In this document: piece after piece, positions 4,800 through 38,714 of the stretch
Layout: every line of letters begins with the position of its first letter
Numbering within the stretch: position 1 is the first letter of the stretch
From: a phage
NCBI GenBank assembly: GCA_036930585.1
Contig: GCA_036930585.1_3066.1
Direction: 5' to 3' (one strand)
Length of the DNA stretch: 64,000 bases
Made by a program: the position numbers and the translations under genes
Notes under the pieces: model-generated
What the model saw: only the letters and a program-made list of their open reading frames with translations
Told to the model about the DNA's origin: nothing
Database searches by the model: none

Positions 4800-4976
4800 T
4801 TACCCTTTAAGTAAGTCGTAAAATCCGCCATTCACATGCTTAGGGGCAGAGACTAACCGAATAGCAATCCGATGACAATCAGGACATACATCAGTATCTC
4901 TTTCAGAAATTTTCTTGATTTTTTCGTATTCTTTTGCGCAGTCTTTTGATTGACATTTATAATCATAAAGCGGCAT
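4800..4976 (-). CDS. small zinc-ribbon protein (FmdB-like CxxC...CPxC), 58 aa; not in ORF track
   Basis: MPLYDYKCQSKDCAKEYEKIKKISERDTDVCPDCHRIAIRLVSAPKHVNGGFYDLLKG; fills the gap between flanking genes with 2-nt spacing. Confidence 0.5.
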   Translation of the reverse strand: MPLYDYKCQSKDCAKEYEKIKKISERDTDVCPDCHRIAIRLVSAPKHVNGGFYDLLKG

Positions 4977-14838: not shown

Positions 14839-14846
14839 TATTTATA
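14839..14846 (-). promoter_or_regulatory. late promoter box TATAAATA upstream of soc
   Basis: plus tatttata = minus TATAAATA about 30 nt upstream of soc ATG. Confidence 0.5.
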
Positions 14847-14876
14847 ATAAATTCTCGCGGCTTTTAAGACGAGCTG

Positions 14877-15392
14877 TTAATAACCTCGGTCTTGACGTTC
14901 AAAATTATGTTTGTTTTTCAAATAATAAAGTTTAAAGATTTCTTCCGCATTCATTCCAAGGCCAGCAAACATATTTAATACGAAATGAAATATATCCACA
15001 AGCTCAAATTTAATTTCGAGCTGATCTTCTGGGGACATTTCATCAATGCGTTTTTCTTGCGCTTCAATATAACGTGCTTTCCATTTTTTCCAAACTGCCG
15101 ATGCATCTTTTTCACCACGTGACATTTCACCAAGAGAAGTCAGAAGTTCGCGGAATTCATCGTCAATGCAGTCTTTTTGTTCACGCATCCAAGAAACAAC
15201 ATCACCGGCAGTTTCTAATTTATCTGGATGATAGCAGTATTCGCGGTCATTTGCTAAACGAATCTGCAGAGATTTCTGCATGTCAAGCATTACCTGCAGC
15301 GGGTCTTTTTCATCACCGAGAATATCCCAATATTCATTTTGAGCTTTATCAGCGCCTTCGATCAGTTGACTACATTCGTTAAAGTAAGCCAT
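14877..15392 (-). CDS. 56: dCTPase / dCTP pyrophosphatase gp56 (MazG-like), 171 aa
   Basis: MAYFNECSQLIEGADKAQNEYWDILGDEKDPLQVMLDMQ...; ATG at 15392 preferred over track TTG. Confidence 0.9.
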   Translation of the reverse strand: MAYFNECSQLIEGADKAQNEYWDILGDEKDPLQVMLDMQKSLQIRLANDREYCYHPDKLETAGDVVSWMREQKDCIDDEFRELLTSLGEMSRGEKDASAVWKKWKARYIEAQEKRIDEMSPEDQLEIKFELVDIFHFVLNMFAGLGMNAEEIFKLYYLKNKHNFERQDRGY

Positions 15393-15427: not shown

Positions 15428-16240
<813 letters not shown>

Positions 16241-16342
16241 TCATTTATTGCAGCAAAAAACGAATTATATAATTCTTCATCATATGTATTTGATAGTAAT
16301 ACTAACACGTTTTGCGATAAATATTAATTTAAAGGAGGACAT

Positions 16343-21367: not shown

Positions 21368-22535
21368 TAAATTCTTCCATATCACTTAACTGCTCGAGGT
21401 CAGTTTCTAAATCAGCAGCTGATTTACTTTTACTTTCTGGAGATTTAAATTTTTCAACCTTTGAGTTAATCAATTCATCAACTTCAGCTTCAACAATTTC
21501 ATTACTATCAATAGCACCTAACTGATAAGCACGTTTAATAGCATCTCGGAATGGTTGATGCTTAAATAAAGGACCCCAGAATGTAGTGCAGTTAGTATCT
21601 TTTGCACGCCAAGATTTTTCTTCGCGAATCATCTCGCCGGTTTCTTCGTCAAGAAATTCACGAGCATACCAACCATTCTTAGGTTTTACTACAAATCCTA
21701 ATTCTAGAGCCATATCTAACAATCCAGAATAAGGATCGATACCACCGTCAAATTTAACATCAATAAAGAATTTACTTTTTTCTTTAACGGTACGAGATTT
21801 TTCTACATTTAGAACAAATTGATACCCCTGAAGATCAGAACCATCTTTAATCTGACGTTTACCGATAATGAATACAGTATCAGCCGAATACATCGGTCCA
21901 GTACCACCTCCCATAACTGTTTTACTAAACATTTCTTGTGTTTCGTATGTATGGTTAATAGCAATACATGGAATATTTTTAGTACTAAAATAGGGAGTTA
22001 CGATACGAAATAAGCTTTTCATTGTTTTAGCTCTAGTCATATCACTAACAACTTTTTCATTTAAAGCATCTTCAGTTTCTTTCTTAGAAGCTAAGTTACC
22101 AAGTGAATCGATAAAAACGACTACCTTTTCGCCGCGTTCAATTGCATCCAATTGATTAACCATGTCAATACGTAATTGCTCAAGTGATTGAACCGGAGTA
22201 TGAATTACTCGTTCTGGATCGACTCCCATAGACCGCAAATAAGCAGGAGTAATACCAAATTCACTATCATAAAACAAACATACTGCATCAGGATATTGAC
22301 GCATGTAAGATGACACCATTGTTAATCCAAAGTTTGATTTAAATGATTTCGATGGACCTGCCAAAATTAACAGACCAGATTGCATACCACCAGTAATTTC
22401 ACCAGAAAGTGCAATATTCATCATAGGAATTTTTGTTCGAACTACATCTTTTTCATTAAAGAATTTAGATGCTGTTAATTCTGCAGTCAATTTAGAAGTA
22501 GAAGCTTTAATCAAACGAGATTTTAAATCAGACAT
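21360..22535 (-). CDS. uvsX: UvsX recombinase (RecA/Rad51 family), 391 aa
   Basis: MSDLKSRLIKASTSKLTAELTASKFFNEKDVVRTKIPMMNIALSGE... Confidence 0.95.
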   Translation of the reverse strand: MSDLKSRLIKASTSKLTAELTASKFFNEKDVVRTKIPMMNIALSGEITGGMQSGLLILAGPSKSFKSNFGLTMVSSYMRQYPDAVCLFYDSEFGITPAYLRSMGVDPERVIHTPVQSLEQLRIDMVNQLDAIERGEKVVVFIDSLGNLASKKETEDALNEKVVSDMTRAKTMKSLFRIVTPYFSTKNIPCIAINHTYETQEMFSKTVMGGGTGPMYSADTVFIIGKRQIKDGSDLQGYQFVLNVEKSRTVKEKSKFFIDVKFDGGIDPYSGLLDMALELGFVVKPKNGWYAREFLDEETGEMIREEKSWRAKDTNCTTFWGPLFKHQPFRDAIKRAYQLGAIDSNEIVEAEVDELINSKVEKFKSPESKSKSAADLETDLEQLSDMEEFNE

Positions 22536-22543
22536 ATAATACC

Positions 22544-23209
22544 TTATAGTAGTGTTCTTGTTCCACGAAATACTTCGAGCATTCTTGCATAAGATTTATT
22601 TGGAAATCCAGCTTCAATTGCTAATTTTTTAAGCTTAATAGCACCGGGTTTTCCAGAGTTTTCCCATATTTCTTTAATCTTTTCAATGTTATCCCACATT
22701 ATTGGGTCACGTTTATGTGATGGTTTATTTCTATTATAACCATATGGATTATTAAGCAAAGCTTCTTTTCGTTTTGCTTTAGTTTCTTCTGACTGCTTTT
22801 TGCCTAGCTGGGCTTTCCGGCAAACATCACTAAATCCAAGATGTTTTGGTTTTCCTTTTTGAGCTTTTGAAATTTTTTCTTTGGTTTCTGATGAAACTCT
22901 ATAACCAATTCTTCTACCACCCTCTCCACCAATTTTTAAATTATAAGTCATAGGATCATTTACCACATCTATTGTTACTAATTCTCTTTCAGCATCACGG
23001 GCTGATTTAAAATCTTTATAAAACCCAAGAATGCTTAAATTAAAATTTTTCTTACCATACTTTTTCTTGGCTTGTGCTAATAAAGTTCCTGATCCCATAT
23101 AACCATCATTTAAATCATCGGTTGAATGAGTTCCATAGTAAATTTTATTATTAACTAAATTAGTTATAACATAAGTATAATTATATTTCTTTTCTTTATG
23201 TCTTTTCAT
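22544..23209 (-). CDS. segA: GIY-YIG homing endonuclease SegA, 221 aa
   Basis: MKRHKEKKYNYTYVITNLVNNKIYYGTHS... GIY-YIG motif; located between uvsX and the glucosyltransferase locus as in T4. Confidence 0.85.
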   Translation of the reverse strand: MKRHKEKKYNYTYVITNLVNNKIYYGTHSTDDLNDGYMGSGTLLAQAKKKYGKKNFNLSILGFYKDFKSARDAERELVTIDVVNDPMTYNLKIGGEGGRRIGYRVSSETKEKISKAQKGKPKHLGFSDVCRKAQLGKKQSEETKAKRKEALLNNPYGYNRNKPSHKRDPIMWDNIEKIKEIWENSGKPGAIKLKKLAIEAGFPNKSYARMLEVFRGTRTLL

Positions 23210-23213
23210 GTCA

Positions 23214-24062
23214 TTAATCAACTGCTATTGGATGAATAGCATTAAACTTATGAAATGCTTCTGATTTTTCTTTACGCGAAACACACATGCGAAGAACCTT
23301 TAATGGTTCGTCTTCTTCACCCAACGATTTTCGTTTTTCAATATTAGAAGTTTTCCAACGAGCTTGCTCTGGAAACTCTCTATTGATTTGCTCAAGCGCT
23401 CTATTATGTTTAGAATTACTACGAATTGAACTACACCCGCCAGGAGCTTGTGCTTTTCCAGATACAACCAGATATTTGAACAAGGCCAAATGCGGATAAC
23501 CTTGATTAATTAAATTGAGAAATGCATACATATCTTCGCACAAATCAATTTTTCCATACCCAATTTGTTCTGTCGTAAGTTTTCCGAGGTCATACCATGT
23601 ATTCGTGAATCCATATGAATTTTCACGATAATTACCCCAAGATGAAGTAATTTTAAAAATAGGTAGGCGAGCATGACCGTGATAATACCCGCAATCCATG
23701 GCATCTTCGACGTATTGAATCAATTCATAGAACTGTTCATGAGTCAATTGATTGACTTTATCTACACAGCGACGATCATCTTTCTTTCGCATTGAACTCA
23801 TACGAATAGTAGTATCATCGTCAATCATCCAGATTCGTTGACCTGCATACATATCAGTAATCGCTTTACGAGTACCAGCAATTCCATTAACATCATCAGG
23901 AATAGTTATAATTTTAGCTCTAGAGCCATAAGCGTCATAATAAGCTTTTTCTTCGTGTTCACGTACTACAATATGTGGTTCATAATCAGTCGGAAACATA
24001 TCAAGGGCAGAAACTGCCCCTACGCGTTGATAACTTGGAATTACGAATTGAATCATTTCCAT
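23214..24062 (-). CDS. GT-A fold glycosyltransferase (DxD), 282 aa, at the locus occupied by beta-glucosyltransferase in T4; candidate beta-glucosyl-HMC alpha-glucosyltransferase (T2/T6 type)
   Basis: N-terminal VIPSYQR and MIDDDTT (DxD) motifs; no resemblance to T4 Bgt (GT-B); locus between segA and 42. Confidence 0.65.
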   Translation of the reverse strand: MEMIQFVIPSYQRVGAVSALDMFPTDYEPHIVVREHEEKAYYDAYGSRAKIITIPDDVNGIAGTRKAITDMYAGQRIWMIDDDTTIRMSSMRKKDDRRCVDKVNQLTHEQFYELIQYVEDAMDCGYYHGHARLPIFKITSSWGNYRENSYGFTNTWYDLGKLTTEQIGYGKIDLCEDMYAFLNLINQGYPHLALFKYLVVSGKAQAPGGCSSIRSNSKHNRALEQINREFPEQARWKTSNIEKRKSLGEEDEPLKVLRMCVSRKEKSEAFHKFNAIHPIAVD

Positions 24063-24793
24063 TCACCGTTATAATCTTTTTTCGCAATATGAGTTTCACC
24101 AGTGTTCCACCAATGGTCAACTAAATAAAACTGATTTTCGTACACATGAAGACTTCCAACGTTCCATATAATAGAACCTGCTTTATATTGCCGCGATGGG
24201 TCGCCTGCATTCAAATCAGATACTAATTTATCTAGTACGTATTTTTGCCAAGCATAATCATTACGATAGCCTGCCCAGCAATCATTGCTTCTCATGCTAA
24301 CAACCGCATTGACTTTCTTATCACGAATCAGGTACTGTACTGTATTAGTACACATGAAATCTGACATACCATCTTTATTGTAGTCAAATTGCATGGATGG
24401 ACGAGTATAAATCATGATACCACGTCGAGAATCAGGATTTTGACCAAGTTCAGCTAAACACATATCATACTGGGCATAGTTATCTTCTGACCAAATAGCC
24501 CAACCATAATTCGAGTTAATTTCGCCTTTAGAAGATGCTACCTGCTGCCAAATCTTTGGTGTTTCACCTGGAATATCTTTAACAAACAAACTCTTAGATT
24601 TATACCATTCAAGTTCACGCTGAATGTATTCATCATTAAGAGCGCCAAAAATAAACGGTTCATCTGCTATAAATGATGCGCCAATAATTTCAATAGTTTT
24701 AACGCCAGTTTTATCAACTACGAAATCTTTTTCCTTTAATGCAAGCCCCAAATGAAGACGGATTTCTTCAACTGTCATAGAGTCACTAATCAT
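24053..24793 (-). CDS. 42: dCMP hydroxymethylase gp42, 246 aa
   Basis: MISDSMTVEEIRLHLGLALKEKDFVVDKTGVKTIEIIGASF... Confidence 0.95.
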   Translation of the reverse strand: MISDSMTVEEIRLHLGLALKEKDFVVDKTGVKTIEIIGASFIADEPFIFGALNDEYIQRELEWYKSKSLFVKDIPGETPKIWQQVASSKGEINSNYGWAIWSEDNYAQYDMCLAELGQNPDSRRGIMIYTRPSMQFDYNKDGMSDFMCTNTVQYLIRDKKVNAVVSMRSNDCWAGYRNDYAWQKYVLDKLVSDLNAGDPSRQYKAGSIIWNVGSLHVYENQFYLVDHWWNTGETHIAKKDYNGEWK

Positions 24794-24800
24794 TTAAACC

Positions 24801-24950
24801 TCAATTGATACATTCATATTTAACTTGTAACAGTAATAAACCCCACCCTATGATAAAAGTTGGAATCATAAGAGGAACCGTTACACTATAGTATATACTT
24901 ATTATAATCATCAAGATTAAAAGCAACACTGTTATAATTTTGCTTTTCAT
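24801..24950 (-). CDS. small membrane protein, 49 aa (imm.1 position; not in ORF track)
   Basis: MKSKIITVLLLILMIIISIYYSVTVPLMIPTFIIGWGLLLLQVKYECIN; ATGA overlap with imm stop. Confidence 0.5.
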   Translation of the reverse strand: MKSKIITVLLLILMIIISIYYSVTVPLMIPTFIIGWGLLLLQVKYECIN

Positions 24951-25198
24951 TCCTTCTCTCTGATGATAATTACCTGATTTGGCTGTGCAGACTTTTTAGT
25001 TTCACCCGCAATTGACCAAATAAATGTAATAAACCAACCAATAATTGACCAGTTAAACAGTAAAGATGTGAAAAAGATTCCTACTGTCGATTTTGACCCA
25101 CGCATCAAGGCAATGAACCATGGAAGCATGTATATAATAATAGCCAACACACCTGAAACTAAAACCATAAAAATTGAACCTGCTACTAAAGTTTCCAT
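24947..25198 (-). CDS. imm: superinfection immunity protein Imm, 83 aa
   Basis: METLVAGSIFMVLVSGVLAIIIYMLPWFIALMRGSKSTVGIFFTSLLFNWSIIGWFITFIWSIAGETKKSAQPNQVIIIREKE. Confidence 0.9.
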   Translation of the reverse strand: METLVAGSIFMVLVSGVLAIIIYMLPWFIALMRGSKSTVGIFFTSLLFNWSIIGWFITFIWSIAGETKKSAQPNQVIIIREKE

Positions 25199-25205
25199 GT
25201 TTTCC

Positions 25206-25586
25206 TCACTTAGTCAAATTTTTTACACATGAATTATAAGAATTCACTACATACTCCATCGGAGCATTTTTACCAGTACGCCATTGGTAATTATTAGCCC
25301 AATTAGCCCAAAGCTCGGCGCAGTAGTTTTCAATTTTTTCTTCGCGTGTAATTACATCTGAATTACGATATGCTTGAGCAGATTCATCTGGACGAATAGC
25401 TTCGTCAAAATTCGCCTGCATTTGTTCTACTGTTTGCTTTGGAGCTTCTTTATAACACTTGACATTAGGATTATAAAACTTGCTTGAACAGTTTACAATT
25501 TTTCCTGCATCAGACTGATTTACTACCGGTCCTTGAGCTACACAACCAGTAAGACCTAATGCAATAACCAAAATAGCGATTTTCAT
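25206..25586 (-). CDS. putative lipoprotein, 126 aa
   Basis: MKIAILVIALGLTGC lipobox signal peptide. Confidence 0.6.
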   Translation of the reverse strand: MKIAILVIALGLTGCVAQGPVVNQSDAGKIVNCSSKFYNPNVKCYKEAPKQTVEQMQANFDEAIRPDESAQAYRNSDVITREEKIENYCAELWANWANNYQWRTGKNAPMEYVVNSYNSCVKNLTK

Positions 25587-25596
25587 AATAATTTCC

Positions 25597-25833
25597 TCAA
25601 ATGCAAGTAGTAATTACTCCAGTAGTGCTTATGCAGGTATTACCCATTTGCACACCTAAAGATCCATTTGTATTCACATGAAGATTATCATCAATTTTAA
25701 CTGATATTTTACCATTAGTGTGAATAACGGTGCTAGATTCAATCACAGGTTGAGTATCATTTTCAACACTAACAAATGGAACTGCTGCTAATGCAACTAA
25801 ACAAACTGCTAAGCATCCCATAACAATTTTCAT
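25597..25833 (-). CDS. small secreted/membrane protein, 78 aa
   Basis: ATG at 25833 (MKIVMGCLAVCLVALAAVPF...); track TTG rejected. Confidence 0.5.
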   Translation of the reverse strand: MKIVMGCLAVCLVALAAVPFVSVENDTQPVIESSTVIHTNGKISVKIDDNLHVNTNGSLGVQMGNTCISTTGVITTCI

Positions 25834-25870
25834 TTCATTCTCCAAATCCGTATCAGTAGTTGATAGTTGT

Positions 25871-35653: not shown

Positions 35654-35670
35654 AAGGGCCGAAGCCCTTT
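35654..35670 (-). terminator. stem-loop at 3' end of alpha-gt
   Basis: aagggccgaagccctt. Confidence 0.45.
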
Positions 35671-36871
35671 ATTTTGTAATAATGTCAAACTGTTCTTTAA
35701 AGCAGAAGCTTGAATCTTGATGCTGATACAAAAATTCATATGCTTTTTCTCGCTCACGGTCATAAAGAGCTCGGTCAGATGACAGTTCTTTAATACGCTC
35801 GAATGTTGATTCCATGTCATTTTCATCAAACCAAATGATACCGCTATCATGCGAGGTCAAAGGAGTATTATCAACACGGAATTTTAAATTTTCGCCAGTA
35901 GATTTCCAAAATACCGGAATTGTTCCACATGCACCAAGCTCGAGATGAGTATATTCTAAAGAGCGCTGTAGATATTTTTTATCCAACTTACTCAACTGAT
36001 AACCAAAACCGGATTTACTCATACGTTCAAGCATTTCGCTATTTACATAACGGTCAAGAATTTGCGTTGGCAAATTAGGAGCAATTTTAATTTGGTCTAC
36101 TTGATGAAGACGATAATACTCGTATGGAATTCCTTTTTCTTTAATAGGAATGAACGCTGGAGAACGTTCCAGACCTTCCATAATAGTACTTAGTCCTGCA
36201 GGTTTAAGATGTTTTTCGTGAAAATCAAACATCTGATAAAAACCTTTCCATGTAGTCGTACGACCAATCCAACGGTTGATATTCATATTAATTTCAGAAA
36301 CATCTTTCCAGTAGGTTGACCGAACCTTCGCAATATCCATAGGAGGCTGAAAGTTATATACGGTCGGTGCTTCTTCAATATCATCAAACAGAGAAACAGT
36401 TTCTGGATACCATTCTTTCATCAGAACTTTATTAAAATCACCATTATCAGAATGACTAAAAATAACATCAGCTCGACGAACAGTTTCTTCTAATCCCAAA
36501 TTTCGACGCAAAGAAAGAGAAGAATGGTCATGTTGATAAACTACAACACGAACAGAAGGTTTAATGTTATCAATAATTTTTTTATAGTTATTAATAGTGT
36601 CTTCTTCAACCGAAGTAGCAGGAACTGAATTGATAATTAGAATATCACAATCATTTACCAGCTTAAGTGTTTTATCGTATTCTTTTGCCAATAAAACCGG
36701 AATTGAAAATGATTTATAATCATGCGCGCAATTACGAGTAAATGATTTATCTTTAGCATAAACCAAAGTCACTTCATGACCATTTTTAATAAACCAATCA
36801 CGTTGCTCGAGTGAGAATTTTGTTACACCACAACCTTCAAGACCTCGAGCCATAAAAATACATGCTTTCAT
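35669..36871 (-). CDS. agt: DNA alpha-glucosyltransferase, 400 aa
   Basis: MKACIFMARGLEGCGVTKFSLEQRDWFIKNGHEVTLVYAKDKSF... Confidence 0.9.
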   Translation of the reverse strand: MKACIFMARGLEGCGVTKFSLEQRDWFIKNGHEVTLVYAKDKSFTRNCAHDYKSFSIPVLLAKEYDKTLKLVNDCDILIINSVPATSVEEDTINNYKKIIDNIKPSVRVVVYQHDHSSLSLRRNLGLEETVRRADVIFSHSDNGDFNKVLMKEWYPETVSLFDDIEEAPTVYNFQPPMDIAKVRSTYWKDVSEINMNINRWIGRTTTWKGFYQMFDFHEKHLKPAGLSTIMEGLERSPAFIPIKEKGIPYEYYRLHQVDQIKIAPNLPTQILDRYVNSEMLERMSKSGFGYQLSKLDKKYLQRSLEYTHLELGACGTIPVFWKSTGENLKFRVDNTPLTSHDSGIIWFDENDMESTFERIKELSSDRALYDREREKAYEFLYQHQDSSFCFKEQFDIITK

Positions 36872-36922
36872 TTAATATCCTCTTTGTTTTGGTTTATTTT
36901 ACCAAAAAATTTATAAAGCAAT

Positions 36923-37825: not shown

Positions 37826-38366
37826 ATAAAAAATCCAAACTAGGAGAATCGTCTACAACACTTTTCTTTTCAGCCCCCGGTGTTCTATAGGTTGATTCTT
37901 CGTAATGCGTCATTTTATCGTAGATGTCTTGAATAAAAGTTTCATCTACTAACGCAACCATATCGTCGTCACGACTGTCATAGACATTGTGAACGAAGTA
38001 ACTATATTTCTTTGCAACTTCCTTACGTTCTTTTTTAATACGTTGGACGAATGCATTAAAACAAGCTTGAGTTATATATGCATGTGGGTTTTTATATTTC
38101 GTTTCATCAAAATTATGAAGCCCCTTAATAGAAGCTTCTATACCATCTGCAATCATTTCTTGTTTCCAAGACTGGGTGTATCCTGAAAAGTTGAAACGTT
38201 TAGATAAGCCTTCTGCAATAAGCATAATGGCTAATCCGATAGTATCATTCTGACGAACTACTTTATTTGGGTCTTTATTATTTGCTAATTCTGTTTTCCA
38301 ATCAATAATAGCTTGTAAAAGCTCTTTATTGTTTACGTAATTATATTTAGGCTTAGTTTCTGACAT
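37809..38366 (-). CDS. 55: late-transcription sigma factor gp55, 185 aa
   Basis: ATG at 38366 ([58 protein letters not shown]...). Confidence 0.9.
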
Positions 38367-38444
38367 TTTCACCTCTTAGCTCAATTCATAGATCTATTAT
38401 ATCATAATATTTGAAGATCTATCTTAAAGCATAGAGGATATCAG

Positions 38445-38714
38445 TTATCTAAGTAAACAGTATGCTTGGAATACTTTCTCCATCATCTTTTTAAATTCAT
38501 GAATATCTATATAATGACTAGTTAGATCAGCATGATATAAAAAGTCTAAAAACTTTTCATGTGTACTAACATATTCACTTTCATTTAATTCAGAAACATG
38601 GCTTTCCCAATATCCAACACCAGTCTTATTTGGGAAAAATGAAATTTTCATGTATTTGTCAACATAGAAAATGCCATAATTTTCAATAGTAATAGAAATA
38701 TTAATAAATTTCAT
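38445..38714 (-). CDS. hypothetical protein, 89 aa
   Basis: ATG ORF. Confidence 0.5.
   Translation of the reverse strand: MKFINISITIENYGIFYVDKYMKISFFPNKTGVGYWESHVSELNESEYVSTHEKFLDFLYHADLTSHYIDIHEFKKMMEKVFQAYCLLR

Follow-up and report, generated by a model that had tools for sequence, protein, structure and literature searches.

The locus between segA and gene 42

In a 64-kb stretch of phage DNA (hereafter the window), translation of the open reading frames places a frame of 282 codons on the minus strand at 23214..24062, flanked by segA and gene 42. Its translation starts MEMIQFVIPSYQR and includes RIWMIDDDTTIRM, so that the reading frame, its neighbors and the two motifs VIPSYQR and MIDDDTT are exactly as the initial annotation of this DNA had described them. 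The first ATG of the frame (24062) is a GTG in both T2 and T6, while the second (24056) is conserved, has the sequence GGTGA just 5' of it, and overlaps the stop codon of gene 42 as ATGA, an arrangement shared with the T2 gene. For these reasons the true start is most likely the second ATG, which would yield a product of 280 residues, the length annotated in T2; the 282 codons originally reported thus hold for the reading frame, whereas the protein is most likely the shorter form. Residue numbers given below (R11, D79 and so on) count from the 280-residue form of this gene, ba-gt.

Upstream of ba-gt lies gene 42, which is collinear with gene 42 of T4 at 92–94% identity (blastn), and the overlap of its stop codon with the ba-gt start suggests that translation of the two genes may be coupled. 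Downstream, the ATG of segA follows the ba-gt stop codon by 5 nt; segA is a neighbor only and stands outside the modification pathway. An alpha-glucosyltransferase gene, a-gt, is found elsewhere in the window, and its product is 92% identical to T4 Agt and likewise to T6 Agt (Table 1). In T4 the slot between gene 42 and segA is taken by b-gt, which specifies a protein of 351 residues.

A scan for promoters and terminators across 22400..25300 was uninformative, with 16 promoter-like sites where 12.3 ± 4.0 would be expected. The first 60 nt of ba-gt coding sequence contain a G+C-rich hairpin of 9 bp (TAGGGGCAGTTTCTGCCCTTG) and, after it, a run rich in T, identical in sequence in T2 and T6, which could be an RNA structure acting on translation or transcript processing, or could be plain coding sequence. 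Between genes 42 and 43 the window also contains two reading frames for small hydrophobic proteins of 49 and 82 residues; T4 has no annotated counterpart there, whereas the annotation of T2 records includes small genes like these.

Table 1. Features of the glucosyltransferase locus and related sites (window coordinates unless another record is named).
Feature	Position	Strand	Details
ba-gt (ggt, TAGT), beta-glucosyl-HMC-alpha-glucosyltransferase	23214..24056	(-)	280 aa; 282 aa from alternative ATG 24062
Gene 42, dCMP hydroxymethylase	24053..24793	(-)	PHROG 160 (thymidylate synthase family), E 2.4e-66
segA, GIY-YIG homing endonuclease	22544..23209 (ORF 22544..23221)	(-)	PHROG 314, E 7.6e-44
a-gt, alpha-glucosyltransferase	35669..36871	(-)	400 aa; PHROG 2888, E 3.4e-222
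Glucosyltransferase cassette	23237..24070		Replaces T4 24263..25496 (b-gt); blastn against T4, T2 and T6, and boundary alignments
ba-gt 3' remnant	23212..23236; T4 24239-24264		Boundary alignment
T2 ba-gt alleles	L003:3007-3849; L005:2283-3125; L006:2286-3128		T2 records PV958097, AP018813 and MH751506; window R11 codon at 24024..24026
Hairpin	24002..24022	(-)	Within ba-gt coding sequence
Small hydrophobic-protein ORFs	24801..24950; 25597..25845	(-)	49 aa; 82 aa
Sites lacking segF and mobB	14846..14877; 36862..36887		Comparison with T4

The product belongs to the T2/T6 family and is unrelated in sequence to T4 Bgt

Over its full length of 280 residues the window protein is 98–99% identical to the proteins of three independent T2 records and of T6 (98.2% for T2 by tblastn), whose genes likewise lie directly 3' of gene 42, are accompanied by alpha-gt, and encode the same motifs. 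It matches PHROG 842, "beta-glucosyl-HMC-alpha-glucosyltransferase", over residues 2–277 with an E value of 1.7e-89, and it scores 39.6 bits with the Pfam family PF20691 (TET-associated glycosyltransferase, TAGT), whose gathering cutoff is 27.5, with residues 5–209 aligned to positions 2–205 of the 205-position profile. Up to an E value of 10, TAGT was the only Pfam family matched, and no NCBIfam model matched either ba-gt or a-gt. Relatives are abundant: tblastn identified homologues in 690 phage records, with at least 95% identity in 472 of them, searching 1.84 billion cluster representatives with a profile recovered 1777 relatives at an E value of 0.001 or below, and all but one of the 118 diverse relatives that we scanned (117/118) match PF20691.

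We also considered whether ba-gt might be a diverged Bgt, and rejected this on the basis of both the protein pair and the window as a whole. BLASTP of T4 Bgt against the window protein gave nothing significant (best E 0.28, over 10 residues), and tblastn of T4 Bgt across the 64-kb window identified no homologue (best E 8.3, a chance match). Near-identity to the T2 and T6 proteins and the PHROG 842 assignment, together with the lack of similarity to Bgt, bear out the original proposal that a T2/T6-type enzyme sits at the b-gt locus of T4. According to the literature, T4 Bgt resembles ba-gt in its slot between gene 42 and segA, in its use of UDP-glucose, and in forming a beta linkage on phage DNA; the T4 protein, however, has 351 residues, is of the GT-B type and glucosylates bare hmC. 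The window protein is predicted to be a GT-A enzyme of 280 residues with alpha-glucosyl-hmC as its substrate.

Although the enzyme does differ from that of T4, as first noted, this does not make the phage out of the ordinary, since alpha-gt together with a TAGT is common in Tequatrovirus and the majority of T4-like coliphages have this gene at the b-gt position of T4. Most phages pair a TAGT with an alpha-GT or a beta-GT, and the alpha-gt plus beta-gt pair of T4 is rare, occurring in 6 of 753 genomes (PMC13216743); in T6-like Tequatroviruses the TAGT occupies the slot syntenic with T4 beta-GT (PMC13390438). The window gene is an already characterized T2/T6-type ba-gt in its usual place, and it is T4 that is the unusual case. 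Earlier publications already cover the identity of the gene, its position syntenic to b-gt of T4, its GT-A fold, T6 deletion mutants and LC-MS analyses of related phages.

Predicted fold and active site

The window protein was modelled with AlphaFold2 from an 11-sequence alignment (mean pLDDT 82, pTM 0.83), and the model is of the GT-A type, with a single Rossmann-like alpha/beta/alpha domain like that of solved GT-A enzymes and with the DDD motif, in agreement with the GT-A assignment made initially. Foldseek comparison of the model with the PDB gave an E value of 7.5e-7, and among predicted viral structures the best match was ba-gt of a Klebsiella phage (E 3.8e-40), with proteins containing a TAGT domain next in rank. 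A PDB search with the single protein sequence returned unrelated matches (best E 1.6), and a search with a profile of 118 family members returned nothing significant (polycystin at E 0.25, a chance match, and AvpGT at E 0.77). As neither PDB search found a solved TAGT structure, the assignments of catalytic residues given below rest on the model and on analogy. The inverting GT-A enzymes of GT2 type (WrtF, AvpGT, TarP/TarS, SpsA, and the catalytic domain of BcsA) are 8–16% identical to ba-gt, with no match at the sequence level even for the family profile, and differ from it in acceptor: theirs is a lipid-, teichoic-acid- or glycan-linked sugar, and that of ba-gt is DNA-linked glucose. For the T6 protein itself, PMC13216743 reports membership in PF20691/TAGT, a GT-A model and a sister relationship to GT2.

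An alignment of 149 family representatives shows complete or near-complete conservation of I6, P7, R11, R63, D79-D81, E174-D175, G186, G206-G207 and R212, every one of which the window protein retains. R11 is present in all 147 representatives that are ungapped at this position, and R11, D79-D81 and E174-D175 are each conserved in 87–100% of the 149. The active-site signature R...DDD...EDY/F has been reported for GT-A enzymes with which phages modify DNA and for the trypanosome JGT (bioRxiv 10.1101/2023.12.21.572611), and the window protein carries R...DDD...ED.

Intactness of this kind bears on whether the gene might be an inactive relic. Both public T6 records contain a damaged allele, with a different lesion in each. 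In MH550421 (L002, about 4951-4953) a TAG stands in place of the Q10 codon, which is why ggt is annotated there from Met20 as a protein of 261 residues; in AP018814/NC_054907 (L004:921-1760) Q10 is intact and a 3-bp deletion, one codon, reduces DDD to DD. These lesions could be mutations of laboratory stocks, or errors made in sequencing DNA that is heavily glycosylated, and they imply that loss of ba-gt may be tolerated in the laboratory. The window gene, however, is intact and full length, keeps all of the invariant residues, and has a start codon that appears coupled to gene 42, and we regard a relic as extremely improbable, the least likely of the readings that we weighed.

An enzyme with a specificity other than that of T2 and T6, using another sugar donor or glycosylating bare hmC directly in the manner of the TET-associated TAGTs, would be nearly as hard to credit. 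Some members of the wider TAGT family are indeed believed to glycosylate 5hmC itself and to use various sugars (PMC13216743; bioRxiv 10.1101/2023.12.21.572611), and many phages have a solitary TAGT and neither alpha- nor beta-GT (PMC13216743). The signature and predicted fold of PF20691 proteins, including the GT-A DNA glycosyltransferases of phage clusters with a 5mC dioxygenase, match those of ba-gt. In those clusters, according to the literature, hmC arises through a TET-like dioxygenase and the TAGT acceptor is the hydroxymethyl group, whereas in T-even phages gp42 supplies the hmC before replication and ba-gt acts on a sugar that the base already bears. Against a changed specificity in the window protein, it differs from each T2 or T6 protein at only 3–5 positions, in variable columns (K92, which is R in both, and positions 40, 55, 106 and 251), with Y40 and D55 as in T2 where T6 has N and G; its gene context is the same as that in T2 and T6, and alpha-gt is present.

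A T2/T6-type cassette in a T4-like backbone

The first 41.6 kb of the window (1 to ~41655) are collinear with T4 at 95–98% identity by blastn, with small indels as the only breaks, and the glucosyltransferase cassette is the sole replacement relative to T4 in its neighborhood. On the right its boundary falls within roughly the final five codons of gene 42, and on the left ~25 nt short of the stop codon of ba-gt. To the left, uvsX-segA (22000..23236) is 99.8% identical to T4 at the DNA level, and its uvsX part is 77% identical to T2 and T6. Homology between T2/T6 and the window stops right past the ba-gt stop codon: segA, which comes next in the window as it does in T4, is absent from the ba-gt locus of T2 and T6, where uvsX follows directly. 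The order uvsX-segA-ba-gt-42, with segA adjoining ba-gt, was found in 9 of 514 matching phage records.

Between b-gt and segA, directly 5' of the latter, T4 still has ~25 nt that match the end of the ba-gt frame exactly (GTTCATCGAATAGCAGTTGATTAATG). This remnant suggests an ancestral ba-gt in the slot, displaced by b-gt on the line leading to T4, which agrees with the rarity of the alpha-plus-beta pair. The T4-like backbone with a T2/T6 cassette, the T4 remnant and the rare pairing of segA with ba-gt led us to entertain, tentatively and as a reading with the odds clearly against it, that the slot 3' of gene 42 is a sharp-edged swappable cassette, with the neighboring SegA promoting its exchange when T-even phages co-infect; that SegA takes any part in moving the cassette is speculation. 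The 99.8% identity of uvsX-segA had also raised the idea that SegA homed recently out of T4 into a genome of the T2/T6 kind. We rejected this as a simple story, since the whole of the first 41.6 kb is 95–98% T4-like and only the glucosyltransferase cassette differs. Two other homing endonuclease genes of T4, segF (T4 15606-16280) and mobB (T4 37885-38679), are absent from the window, in which segA is kept.

Proposed pathway and expected DNA sugars

From the identity, fold, motifs, genomic context and partner enzyme described above, we infer the activity, residue roles and sugar proportions that follow. With high confidence, we take the gene to specify a T2/T6-type glucosyl-DNA beta-glucosyltransferase that would make gentiobiosyl-hmC from the product of alpha-gt; the T2/T6 enzyme and its product are long established (reviewed in PMC6024577). 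In the proposed scheme gp42 would make hm-dCMP and replication would place hmC in the DNA, after which the alpha-GT encoded in the window, a GT-B enzyme, would alpha-glucosylate roughly three quarters of the hmC. The GT-A enzyme specified by ba-gt would then transfer a second glucose from UDP-glucose, in beta-1,6 linkage, onto alpha-glucosyl-hmC to give gentiobiosyl-hmC; the historical name of the gene is misleading, as it is a beta-1,6-linked glucose that ba-gt adds onto alpha-glucosyl-hmC. The chemistry would be that of an inverting, metal-dependent GT-A enzyme resembling GT2. By analogy with GT2-type GT-A enzymes, D79-D81 and R11 may hold the metal and UDP-glucose, and E174-D175 may supply the general (catalytic) base; inversion at the anomeric carbon would agree with the beta linkage of the product.

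All components of the T2/T6 scheme (gene 42, alpha-gt and ba-gt) lie in the window. Since a beta-GT is absent, which holds for the 64-kb window, hmC out of reach of the alpha-GT would stay bare. Virion DNA would most likely contain gentiobiosyl-hmC, some alpha-glucosyl-hmC, ~25% bare hmC and no beta-glucosyl-hmC. In T2 and T6, ~25% of hmC is bare, and gentiobiosyl-hmC amounts to ~5% in T2 and ~72% in T6 (PMC6024577; bioRxiv 10.64898/2026.02.25.707755). Deletion of ba-gt from T6 leaves alpha-glucosyl-hmC only and alters sensitivity to Brig1 and BapA (PMC11078745; bioRxiv 10.64898/2026.02.25.707755). In ten wild T6-like Tequatroviruses with an alpha-GT and a TAGT, LC-MS detected hmdC, alpha-glucosyl-hmdC and alpha-gentiobiosyl-hmdC, in ratios of about 1:2:2 or as about one third hmdC and two thirds gentiobiosyl (PMC13390438).

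The principal competing explanation is that the enzyme acts as its orthologue does in T2, so that a few per cent of hmC would be gentiobiosyl and the DNA would contain mainly alpha-glucosyl-hmC and bare hmC. The proteins are 98.2% identical, and T2 has the gene yet makes only ~5% gentiobiosyl-hmC (PMC6024577; bioRxiv 10.64898/2026.02.25.707755), which means that presence of the gene does not fix the extent of the second glucosylation. All three public T2 records (PV958097, AP018813 and MH751506), however, differ from T6 by R11H, H106R and P251S, and at each of these sites the window protein has the T6 or consensus residue (R11, H106 and P251, where T2 has H, R and S). The arginine at position 11 is the one found in every ungapped representative of the family, and the ten wild phages with an alpha-GT and a TAGT have from 40% to two thirds gentiobiosyl-hmC (PMC13390438). 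We accordingly consider a T2-like level unlikely. Based on its T6/consensus residues at the sites where T2 differs, and on the LC-MS of wild relatives, the sugar pattern of the window phage would probably resemble that of T6, with gentiobiosyl-hmC making up a substantial part.

In T2 a histidine thus replaces the invariant arginine (R11) of the active-site signature, and judging from the sequences this substitution is a plausible candidate cause of the low gentiobiosyl level in T2 (~5%, compared with ~72% in T6). We found no statement in the cited literature that offers R11H as an explanation for the T2 level. The T2 substitution, the lesions in T6 records and the T4 remnant are minor observations that concern other phages or evolutionary history.

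Significance for host defense

The pattern of sugars on hmC determines which host defenses can attack a T-even phage. Gentiobiosyl-hmC is resistant in vitro to the Brig1 glycosylase (PMC11078745) and is resistant to the BapA deglucosylase (bioRxiv 10.64898/2026.02.25.707755). The ~25% of hmC that is bare where beta-GT is lacking leaves T2 and T6 open to attack by Brig3, a 5hmC glycosylase (bioRxiv 10.64898/2026.02.25.707755), and enzymes of the GmrSD/BrxU type still cut such DNA (PMC13390438; PMC13216743). Assignment of the window gene to ba-gt is routine annotation of a described family and no discovery; its value is that a correct annotation of ba-gt predicts the sensitivity of the phage to these defenses.
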